From Escherichia coli (GTDB taxonomy: Bacteria > Pseudomonadota > Gammaproteobacteria > Enterobacterales > Enterobacteriaceae), in the NCBI RefSeq assembly GCF_003334405.1, contig NZ_QOWM01000015.1: DNA of 64,000 nucleotides; one strand, written 5' to 3'. Below the pieces are notes generated by a model. It ran no database searches. It was given only the letters and a program-made list of their open reading frames with translations, and had not been told where the DNA came from. This document shows positions 1 through 3,247 of the stretch, one piece after another. Position 1 is the stretch's first letter, and every line of letters begins with the position of its first letter. Made by a program: the position numbers and the translations under genes.

Positions 1-71
1 GTAGCTCAGCTGGATAGAGTACTCGGCTACGAACCGAGCGGTCGGAGGTTCGAATCCTCCCGGATGCACCA
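1..71 (+). tRNA. argZ: tRNA-Arg (anticodon ACG), 5' end truncated by window edge
   Basis: Sequence identical to the full tRNA-Arg copy at 270-346 from its position 7 onward; ends in CCA. Copy name within the argQZYV cluster is inferred from position. Confidence 0.85.
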
Positions 72-269
72 TATTCTCCGAAATCTTCAGCAATGAAGGT
101 ATCGAAGAGGTAGCGGAATTAACCGCAGGCACTAGGGATGATAACGTTGCTTTAGCAACGGCCCGAAGGGCGAGCCGCAAGGCGAGTAATCCTCCCGGAT
201 GCACCATCTCTTAATTGATATGGCTTTAGTAGCGGTATCAATATCAGCAGTAGAATAAGTTTTCCCGAT

Positions 270-346
270 GCATCCGTAGCTCAGCTGGATAGAGTACTCG
301 GCTACGAACCGAGCGGTCGGAGGTTCGAATCCTCCCGGATGCACCA
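270..346 (+). tRNA. argQ: tRNA-Arg (anticodon ACG)
   Basis: 77-nt cloverleaf sequence GCATCCGTAGCTCAGCTGGATAGAGTACTCGGCTACGAACCGAGCGGTCGGAGGTTCGAATCCTCCCGGATGCACCA with ACG anticodon and encoded CCA. Confidence 0.9.
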
Positions 347-626
347 TATTCTCCGTAACCTTCAGCAATGAAGGTATCGAAGAGATAGCGGTATTAACCG
401 CAGGCACCAGGAAGGATAACGTTGCGCCAGCAACGGCCCGAAGGGCGAACGTCAGTGAGTCATCCTCCCGGATGCACCATCTTCTCCAAAAAATTTCCTT
501 CAAAAATATCTCATTTCTAAATAACTCCTTTATCCATTTCCTGAATTTTCTTCTCCTTCGCCATCAGCGACAAAATCAAGCAATTACGCTAAAGTAGCGT
601 CATATTTTTCGACTTGCGAGAAGACC

Positions 627-1193
627 ATGTACGAGCGTTATGCAGGTTTAATTTTTGATATGGATGGCACAATCCTGGATACGGAGCCTACGCACCGTAA
701 AGCGTGGCGCGAAGTATTAGGGCACTACGGTCTTCAGTACGATATTCAGGCGATGATTGCGCTTAATGGATCGCCCACCTGGCGTATTGCTCAGGCAATT
801 ATTGAGCTGAATCAGGCCGATCTCGACCCGCATGCGTTAGCGCGTGAAAAAACAGAAGCAGTAAGAAGTATGCTGCTGGATAGCGTCGAACCGCTTCCTC
901 TTGTTGATGTGGTGAAAAGTTGGCATGGTCGTCGCCCAATGGCTGTAGGAACGGGGAGTGAAAGCGCCATCGCTGAGGCATTGCTGGCGCACCTGGGATT
1001 ACGCCATTATTTTGACGCCGTCGTCGCTGCCGATCACGTCAAACACCATAAACCCGCGCCAGACACATTTTTGTTGTGCGCGCAGCGTATGGGCGTGCAA
1101 CCGACGCAGTGTGTGGTCTTTGAAGATGCCGATTTCGGTATTCAGGCGGCCCGTGCAGCAGGCATGGACGCCGTGGATGTTCGCTTGCTGTGA
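627..1193 (+). CDS. yqaB: HAD-family sugar phosphatase (fructose-1-phosphatase YqaB)
   Basis: 188-aa ORF starting MYERYAGLIFDMDGTILDT, with the HAD motif I DxDGT; position between the tRNA-Arg cluster and gshA. Confidence 0.9.
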   Translation: MYERYAGLIFDMDGTILDTEPTHRKAWREVLGHYGLQYDIQAMIALNGSPTWRIAQAIIELNQADLDPHALAREKTEAVRSMLLDSVEPLPLVDVVKSWHGRRPMAVGTGSESAIAEALLAHLGLRHYFDAVVAADHVKHHKPAPDTFLLCAQRMGVQPTQCVVFEDADFGIQAARAAGMDAVDVRLL

Positions 1194-1618
1194 GTGAAGC
1201 GTTATCGCTTTTCTCGTTGTTTGCCAGTAGTTTTCTCAGCGCTACACTATTACCCGGCAACTCCGAAGTCGTGCTGGTGGCAATGTTGCTTTCCGGGATC
1301 AGTCATCCCTGGGTTTTAGTTTTAACAGCAACAATGGGTAATAGCCTTGGAGGGTTAACTAACGTTATCCTTGGGCGTTTCTTTCCATTGCGTAAAACAT
1401 CGCGCTGGCAAGAGAAAGCTACCGGCTGGCTGAAACGCTATGGTGCAGTCACGCTATTATTAAGCTGGATGCCCGTGGTTGGCGATTTACTGTGTCTGTT
1501 AGCGGGATGGATGCGCATCTCGTGGGGACCGGTAATCTTTTTTTTGTGCCTTGGTAAAGCGTTACGCTATGTTGCAGTTGCAGCAGCGACCGTTCAGGGC
1601 ATGATGTGGTGGCACTAA
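1190..1618 (+). CDS. yqaA: DedA-like inner membrane protein YqaA
   Basis: 142-aa hydrophobic ORF overlapping the yqaB stop by 4 nt; conserved synteny. Confidence 0.85.
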   Translation: MSEALSLFSLFASSFLSATLLPGNSEVVLVAMLLSGISHPWVLVLTATMGNSLGGLTNVILGRFFPLRKTSRWQEKATGWLKRYGAVTLLLSWMPVVGDLLCLLAGWMRISWGPVIFFLCLGKALRYVAVAAATVQGMMWWH

Positions 1619-1663
1619 TTGTAGGCCTGCACATATGGTCACCATTACAGTTATGCTAATTAA

Positions 1664-3247
<1,584 letters not shown>

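Follow-up and report, generated by a model that had tools for sequence, protein, structure and literature searches.

The question raised by the serV-argVYZQ operon of Escherichia coli concerns the nature of the near-identical blocks of DNA that follow some of its tRNA-Arg genes, each ending in a copy of the tRNA 3′ terminus. The DNA analysed, termed here the window, is a stretch of 64,000 nucleotides (nt) from contig NZ_QOWM01000015.1 (NCBI RefSeq assembly GCF_003334405.1), and it shows 100% identity with E. coli K-12. The K-12 annotation gives the order of the cluster as serV-argV-argY-argZ-argQ, followed by yqaB. The window opens inside argZ, a tRNA-Arg(ACG) gene whose 3′ part occupies positions 1–71 (K-12 annotation; 50.5 bits against the Rfam tRNA model, 5′-truncated by the window start). 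The next tRNA-Arg(ACG) gene, argQ, is at 270–346 (ARAGORN; 67.1 bits against Rfam tRNA; K-12 annotation). Features are on the plus strand unless stated otherwise. The blocks at 72–206 and 347–479 are, with near certainty, two of the three tRNA-linked repeats (TLRs), or RtT-family units, of this operon. The arg units belong to an already-known family that has been described since 1978 and are not new.

The block at 72–206, termed unit 2, is a short-form unit of 135 nt; it is delimited by alignments with unit 3 and with the RtT units of tyrT, by the Rfam RtT model, by its fold and by covariation. Unit 3 (347–479) is a short-form unit of 133 nt that follows argQ, the last tRNA of the operon, and is defined by alignment with unit 2, by fold, by Rfam RtT and by the core motif. 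A third unit of K-12, unit 1, follows argV and lies just upstream of the window. All begin at the base right after the CCA of their tRNA gene (argZ and argQ, and argV in K-12) and are on the same strand as the gene. A reading of the window made from the sequence only had described the whole spacers as near-identical repeats. This holds for 72–206 and 347–479, which are ∼90% identical from the base after the CCA through the pseudo-CCA, where the homology ends; it does not hold for 207–269, which lies outside the repeat unit. The latter segment is an ordinary inter-tRNA spacer of 63 nt, homologous (∼90% or more in alignment) to the 62-nt argY-argZ spacer. As the similarity stops at the pseudo-CCA and 207–269 matches a spacer that is free of a unit, each unit is a discrete block of ∼135 nt placed exactly between the tRNA CCA and the ordinary spacer. 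A repeat finder paired 1–173 with 276–448 at 94% identity. Tandem Repeats Finder reported nothing in window positions 1–3000, which is uninformative because the window contains fewer than two periods of 275 nt.

The 18-mer ATCCTCCCGGATGCACCA has exactly four exact copies, starting at 54, 189, 329 and 462. By chance none is expected (0 of 100 shuffles, with two mismatches permitted). The copies at 54 and 329 are genuine tRNA 3′ ends, the former being the last 18 nt of argZ (54–71), and the other two are pseudo-ends, at 189–206 in unit 2 and 462–479 in unit 3. The presence of tRNA 3′-end copies in the spacers had been noted earlier and is borne out. The segment 189–206 corresponds to tRNA-Arg positions 59–76, that is, the 3′ part of the T-loop, the 3′ strand of the T-stem, the 3′ strand of the acceptor and ACCA. 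The copied 3′ end measures 19 nt in units 1 and 2 and 18 nt in unit 3. The units are therefore bounded by 18-nt direct repeats.

TLRs were first described by Egan and Landy (1978), and a catalogue by Rudd (1999) gave 22 TLRs in K-12 at ten loci (both as cited in PMC8144298). Their hallmark is a 3′-terminal stretch of 18–19 bp that matches the upstream tRNA or rRNA gene; tRNA operons contain 19 of them, at most five to a locus (PMC8144298), in agreement with the arg units. Within their tRNA operon, the arg units immediately follow a stable-RNA gene, and their terminal 18-mers (189–206 and 462–479) are identical to 54–71 and 329–346, respectively. In addition, their core GCAACGRCCCGAAGGGYGA and the junction GA(G/A)T(A/C)ATCC align with the tyrT, K-12 Lys and rrnB units. 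The core that the arg and Tyr units have in common reads CGTTGC-loop-GCAACG-RCCCGAAGGGY-GA in alignment, and past the junction each unit continues into the 3′ end of its own tRNA. A motif scan places the core at 155–173 in unit 2 and at 430–448 in unit 3.

The four RtT units of tyrT-tyrV, one of which is the annotated rttR RNA, score 133–138 bits against the Rfam RtT model (RF00391). At threshold, the model catches long forms after Lys, Pro, Glu, Arg(CCG) and a Yersinia Arg(ACG) gene (52–101 bits); it misses the short Arg(ACG) units of Enterobacteriaceae and the 5S-linked units. The arg spacers are unannotated both in RefSeq and in the curated K-12 record. The short arg, short lys and 5S-linked forms are left blank in current genome annotation because they fall below the Rfam threshold.

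Both window units are predicted to be structured. The fold energy is −50 kcal/mol for unit 2 (z = −4.3) and −49.9 kcal/mol for unit 3 (z = −4.8). The order within a unit is a lineage-specific 5′ part, a strand complementary to the tRNA 3′ end, a cassette of three hairpins and the 18-nt copy. In unit 2 the fold and consensus structure give a 5′ hairpin H1 (83–100), a hairpin H2 (113–126), the 5′ strand of the closing helix P1 (129–142), hairpin A (145–160), hairpin B (161–171) and hairpin C (174–183), followed by a GAGTA linker and by the pseudo-end, which forms the 3′ strand of P1. The fold of unit 3 has hairpin A at ∼420–435 and hairpin B at 436–446. Hairpin A is formed by CGTTGC and GCAACG, hairpin B is GCCC-GAA-GGGC, and the stem of hairpin C is variable and covarying. 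The closing helix of the Arg units pairs GCACC-A-GGGAGGAT with ATCCTCCC-GG-A-TGC and leaves ACCA free; it comprises 13 bp and resembles the acceptor/T-arm stack of a tRNA. Folded as single sequences, Arg, Tyr, Lys, Pro, Glu and 5S units display one common architecture, in which a helix between the host-derived 3′ copy and its upstream complement surrounds three hairpins, A, B and the variable C, joined by two more in long forms.

The structure was assessed by covariation in 20 distinct Arg(ACG) units, taken from among the matches listed in a scan for the core motif. Cells of the paired columns are paired in 95.8% of cases; sliding the partners lowers this to 51% or less. In eight pairs both sides have changed, and the observed score was reached in none of 500 shuffles. 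RNAalifold independently gives essentially the same structure. The closing helix itself (alignment columns 58–71 with 120–133) is 96.5% paired and has two compensatory pairs. These two changes track substitutions in the tRNA gene itself, in two Hafnia loci (L062 and L115).

The core-motif scan covered one genome per species and detected at least 120 loci. With the host defined as the upstream tRNA gene, and with the K-12 loci included and the arg cluster counted twice, the matches listed comprise 51 units after Tyr, 37 after Lys, 26 after Arg(ACG), eight after Pro, three after Glu and two after Arg(CCG) genes. Further units follow 5S rRNA genes and end in AACTGCCAGGCAT and the 5S trailer. The taxa represented in this set are Enterobacterales broadly, Orbaceae, Photobacterium, Marinobacterium and Amphritea. 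In 96 of the 123 units, 18 nt or more of the upstream tRNA 3′ end are copied exactly, and the pseudo-ends of 27 are imperfect. When the host tRNA carries a lineage-specific variant, the unit carries it likewise in 15 of 16 cases. In Pasteurellaceae, RtT members adjoin Asn and Lys tRNA genes, and RtT-family RNAs of Actinobacillus are expressed as detected by reverse transcription PCR, with consistent Northern signals for most candidates (PMC4986893). Core matches outside Gammaproteobacteria (Rhizobiaceae, Actinacidiphila, Clostridia, Archangiaceae and others) have neither a tRNA context nor a pseudo-3′ end and were set aside; their number is about that expected by chance, roughly estimated at ten for a 19-mer in the collection.

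Other K-12 loci display the same arrangement. In lysT-valT-lysW-valZ-lysY-lysZ-lysQ (locus L125, 1131–2340), a unit follows all five tRNA-Lys genes and neither of the two tRNA-Val genes. The lysQ unit is a long form located past the operon terminator; in it, the tRNA 3′ end is repeated along with the entire terminator (∼48 nt). At rrnB, a TLR-type module between terminators T1 and T2 (locus L124, ∼318–431) terminates in AAACTGCCAGGCATCAAATTAAGC, in which the 5S 3′ end and its trailer are repeated; the module is the sRNA gene rrB (Stenum et al., 2021). At the tyrT locus of K-12 (L002), two annotated protein genes lie wholly on TLR repeats (1210–1485 plus strand, 1588–1677 minus strand): ychS, a “putative uncharacterized protein”, is antisense to tyrT units 3 and 4, and tpr, a “protamine-like protein”, is inside rttR. 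The gene ychS looks like an open reading frame made by the repeats rather than a real gene. The rrnB T1-T2 fragment is also the terminator cassette of many cloning vectors, and those plasmids would therefore carry a TLR.

The host-derived part of some units extends beyond the last 18 nt. A long-form Arg(ACG) unit of Yersinia nurmii (locus L078, 2034–2195, minus strand) consists of a 37-nt sense segment corresponding to tRNA-Arg 22–59, the cassette, and then 59–76; its Rfam RtT score is 70.8 bits, in contrast to those of the E. coli arg units. From its sequence, this unit reads as a 5′-truncated tRNA gene with the cassette inserted in the T-loop. Lys and Tyr long forms have a 22–23-nt antisense copy of the T-arm and acceptor 3′ strand, followed by a sense piece of the T-arm. 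Among the units inspected for host pieces, the cassette always interrupts the T-loop of a partial host copy, with TTCGA on one side and ATCC on the other. It might be supposed that TLRs are cut-down host stable RNAs that carry a conserved three-hairpin cassette of ∼60 nt at a fixed point, but we regard this as doubtful. The insertion point may be TTCGA/ATCC in the T-loop of tRNA hosts and GAGAGTAGGA/AACTGCC in 5S hosts, and the cassette may have moved among at least seven kinds of stable-RNA genes, capturing the host 3′ region, sometimes inverted. The function of the cassette may then reside in hairpins A and B, which would set the RNA 3′ end found by Term-seq, either by stopping an exonuclease or by determining cleavage.

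The arg units vary between strains of E. coli. Of 5426 complete E. coli genomes, 2270 are collinear with K-12 across csrA-yqaB. Six strains compared have four or five tRNA-Arg genes and one to three full units, with each of the three positions either filled or empty; copy number, which the sequence-only reading had proposed to compare, thus differs between strains. The spacers between successive tRNA-Arg genes measure 198, 62 and 198 nt in K-12; 198, 62, 62 and 198 nt in EH08-18-36; 64, 62 and 102 nt in strain 272; 64, 62, 62 and 63 nt in CFT073; 198, 62 and 102 nt in Ecol_545; and 197, 63 and 198 nt in 08_3449. The distance from the last tRNA-Arg gene to yqaB is 280 nt in the first four and 147 nt in Ecol_545 and 08_3449. 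The sole unit of CFT073 is the one behind argQ, and 08_3449 has none at that position. In alignment, unit 3 is precisely absent from two strains: the sequence downstream of the CCA is exactly that found downstream of the pseudo-CCA in K-12. The breaks in collinearity beside the argQ CCA and beside the pseudo-CCA are explained by the presence or absence of the 133-nt unit. The 102-nt spacer is a TLR remnant; it consists of the first ∼40 nt with the 5′ hairpin, joined directly to the ordinary spacer, and is without the closing helix, the cassette and the pseudo-3′ end (sequence read at L126 10094–10195; L129 1460–1561 assigned by equal length). Each unit is dispensable on its own, and both gain and loss take place precisely between the 18-nt direct repeats. 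Natural strains of E. coli, having one, two or three arg units, could be used as a ready-made deletion series.

Published Term-seq data (PMC7815308, Supplementary file 1; three growth conditions) were used to locate RNA 3′ ends, with coordinates converted from the minus strand of NC_000913.3. One end is at window position 171 (NC_000913.3 2817959), the last base of hairpin B in unit 2, and was found in two conditions. The equivalent base of unit 3, the last of hairpin B at 446 (2817684), is an end in all three conditions. A further end is in the H2 loop of unit 2, at 118 (2818012). All three are classed as “orphan” (PMC7815308). For the 5S-linked relatives RrA, RrB and RrF, the 5′ end is 3 nt past the mature 5S, which is an RNase E site, and the 3′ end is 3 nt past the repeated 18 nt (PMC8144298). 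The annotated rttR RNA extends from 8 nt past the tyrV CCA to the pseudo-CCA. The sequence-only reading had suggested that the spacers carry processing signals, and this is partly supported by the RrA/RrB/RrF ends, by the span of rttR and by the 3′ ends in both window units. A consensus scan of window positions 1–700 detected no promoter-like site. The same type of scan gave a weak terminator-like hairpin with a T-run at 586–608, between unit 3 and yqaB; judged by its sequence, it is possibly the end of the serV-arg operon transcript. A Salmonella paper that maps RNase E cleavage leaves these repeats unmentioned, and RtT is no longer mentioned in the latest version of the CoCoNuT preprint.

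A processing mechanism is the likeliest account of how the arg units work, and the chances that it is correct appear about even. The arg units would have no promoter of their own and would be co-transcribed with the tRNAs in one precursor. By duplicating the 3′ end and trailer, a unit would recreate the RNase E/exonuclease 3′-processing site of the tRNA, and the nucleases that mature tRNA and 5S 3′ ends would then release it as a separate RNA that is structured and probably short-lived. The conserved cassette might block 3′ exonucleases or direct a secondary cleavage; this is suggested because the dominant surviving 3′ end of the arg units sits at the base of hairpins A and B. The closing helix together with hairpins A and B would decide which fragment survives. 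Recombination between the tandem tRNA genes and the 18-nt repeats would change the copy number of units and would keep the copy identical to the gene. Taken together as one proposition, family identity and processing mechanism are judged probable.

Several observations weigh against this combined interpretation. The arg units score 31.0 bits (window 79–206), 22.8 bits (354–479) and 29.2 bits (unit 1) against Rfam RtT, with the full model length aligned, and are thus below its gathering score of 45 bits. The Term-seq list has no 3′ end at or just past the unit 3 pseudo-CCA (2817651), where reads should map uniquely, and none for unit 1, the Tyr units, the hairpin-B positions of the Lys units or the rrnB module. 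As the ends fall at hairpin B instead, the pseudo-CCA may not be the main stable terminus of the arg units. The absence of ends in the Tyr units may partly be a multi-mapping problem. Units of the lysQ, Pro, Glu and rrnB hosts lie behind an intrinsic terminator and are made only by read-through, which argues against an essential role for the RNA. The stringent-response phenotype, the sole one ever claimed for rtT RNA, was retracted (PMC8144298).

Other reservations concern the structure. The search pattern fixed the 3′ strand of hairpin A and the columns of hairpin B, and invariance there is uninformative; similarly, the GA after hairpin B is conserved throughout the family yet was required by the pattern, and provides no independent evidence. 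In swap controls, which asked whether the upstream strand of a unit fits the 3′ end of its own host better than those of other hosts, the longest contiguous run of pairs separated Tyr and Glu and weakly favoured 5S, and duplex energy separated Glu and 5S and favoured Arg in 13 of 20 units, both being crude metrics. For Lys, Pro and Tyr, the two controls together gave no clear separation. These metrics are too crude because the helix has bulges and the G-rich upstream sequence pairs promiscuously, and the aligned covariation test was therefore relied on instead.

Other explanations of the blocks have to be set against family membership and processing. The sequence-only reading regarded them as relics of tRNA gene amplification. 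In its neutral form, this means decaying partial tRNA-Arg duplicates left by unequal crossing-over in the tandem array, with no selected structure or role. Such debris would fit the host pieces beyond the last 18 nt (37 nt in sense in Yersinia, 22–23 nt in antisense in Lys and Tyr units), the polymorphic copy number of units that are singly dispensable, degenerate remnants such as the 102-nt spacer and the 27 of 123 imperfect pseudo-ends. Neutral decay, however, would erase precisely what is found: a cassette that is not derived from tRNA and is conserved from Enterobacterales to Orbaceae, Vibrionaceae and Oceanospirillales on at least seven host genes, stems that are still paired through compensatory changes, and a pseudo-end that follows host substitutions in 15 of 16 cases among the matches listed. 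Given that the same core accompanies six other kinds of stable-RNA genes and that the fold shows compensatory changes, the units are not mere relics of amplification, the relic interpretation being incomplete, and neutral debris is considered very unlikely. The arrangement of a tRNA gene, an insert and a direct repeat of the tRNA 3′ end beginning in the T-loop is the classic footprint of integrative elements that target tRNA genes. The 18-nt repeats might be attL/attR-like scars of an element that integrated into the T-loop or 3′ end of the tRNA gene or, as had also been suggested, spare attB sites for integrases, and the layout of the arg units, with a block that is precisely present or absent between the repeats, does resemble such a footprint. 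The insert is just ∼117 nt and has no credible open reading frame, the identical type of insert is found at many different tRNA genes and at 5S rRNA, and 5S rRNA is not known as an integrase target. The two strain breakpoints examined, which were the most suggestive and lie beside the CCA and the pseudo-CCA, show just the precise presence or absence of the 133-nt unit, without integrase or island; no island was found at these pseudo-3′ ends among the sample of genomes inspected. In a spread sample of 40 rows, copy-number variation alone fits every record with a sizeable match. An origin or use of the units in integration is hence extremely improbable.

It is also conceivable that the excised arg units are trans-acting regulatory RNAs, which would bind Hfq, CsrA or ProQ or pair with targets and whose level would report transcription of the tRNA operon and thereby growth rate, in the way proposed for the 5S-linked RrA, RrB and RrF. 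These three members of the family bind both Hfq and CsrA in vitro, and their abundance tracks rRNA transcription (PMC8144298). RNA ends of the arg units can be detected, and the strong sequence conservation of the cassette suggests a binding partner. Against this, all 19 tRNA-linked TLRs score below 0.01 in a predictor of CsrA binders, and the phenotypes of rrA, rrB and rrF deletions are modest (PMC8144298); the arg units, moreover, are individually dispensable and vary between strains. A regulatory role in trans is accordingly regarded as unlikely. The host-tracking pseudo-end, the compensatory changes in the closing helix, the presence or absence of units in natural strains and the hairpin-B ends define concrete experiments.

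Additional features of the window were inspected. Small open reading frames in the units were rejected as coding; all have TTG starts except one ATG frame of 41 amino acids, which lies mostly downstream of unit 3, and some run antisense through the tRNA genes. Reverse-strand Rfam matches to Plastid-ycf2 and Plastid-psbl-rps4 are far below threshold, are antisense to the tRNA genes and were discarded as artefacts. The matches to Plastid-ycf2 5UTR RNA, on the minus strand at 270–344 and 1–69, score 33.4 and 18.5 bits against a gathering score of 65.7 and are most likely an artefact of tRNA-like sequence in the plastid model. The window also has a tRNA-Met(CAT) gene at 32300–32375 (plus strand) and a transfer-messenger RNA (tmRNA) gene at 60595–60957 (minus strand) whose tag peptide is ANDENYALAA. 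The TLR core motif was not found after the tRNA-Met or tmRNA gene of the window with up to three mismatches permitted.

The tRNA-linked members of the family have been without a known function for more than 45 years (PMC8144298), and the arg units can be placed with respect to known systems. As with other TLRs of K-12, they belong to a tRNA operon, adjoin a tRNA gene on its downstream side, share their last 18 nt with the 3′ end of that gene and have the conserved core. They differ in being short forms without the two extra hairpins of the Tyr, Pro, Glu and long Lys units, and there is no categorical difference. With rttR/RF00391 they share the core (hairpins A and B and the GAGTAATCC junction), the outer helix with the pseudo-end and the position right after a tRNA. 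The arg units measure 133–135 nt as opposed to ∼178 nt for the Tyr units, do not have the inner 5′ hairpins of the model, and end in the 3′ sequence of tRNA-Arg rather than tRNA-Tyr. The RNA 3′ETS-leuZ (Lalaouna et al., 2015, as cited in PMC8144298) is, in that account, also a by-product of tRNA-operon processing released by RNase E. It is unrelated in sequence, has no copy of the tRNA 3′ end and has a defined function as an sRNA sponge.

RrA, RrB and RrF, which are found between the dual terminators of rrnA, rrnB and rrnD, have the same cassette as the arg units, and their end likewise copies the 3′ end of the upstream gene. The host in their case is 5S rRNA, and the units, located behind terminator T1, arise by read-through. 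They contain GGA motifs, and CsrA binding is predicted for them but not for the tRNA-linked TLRs. RrA, RrB and RrF are the best functional analogue of the arg units, as they are the only members of the family with mapped ends, a measured half-life and known binding partners.

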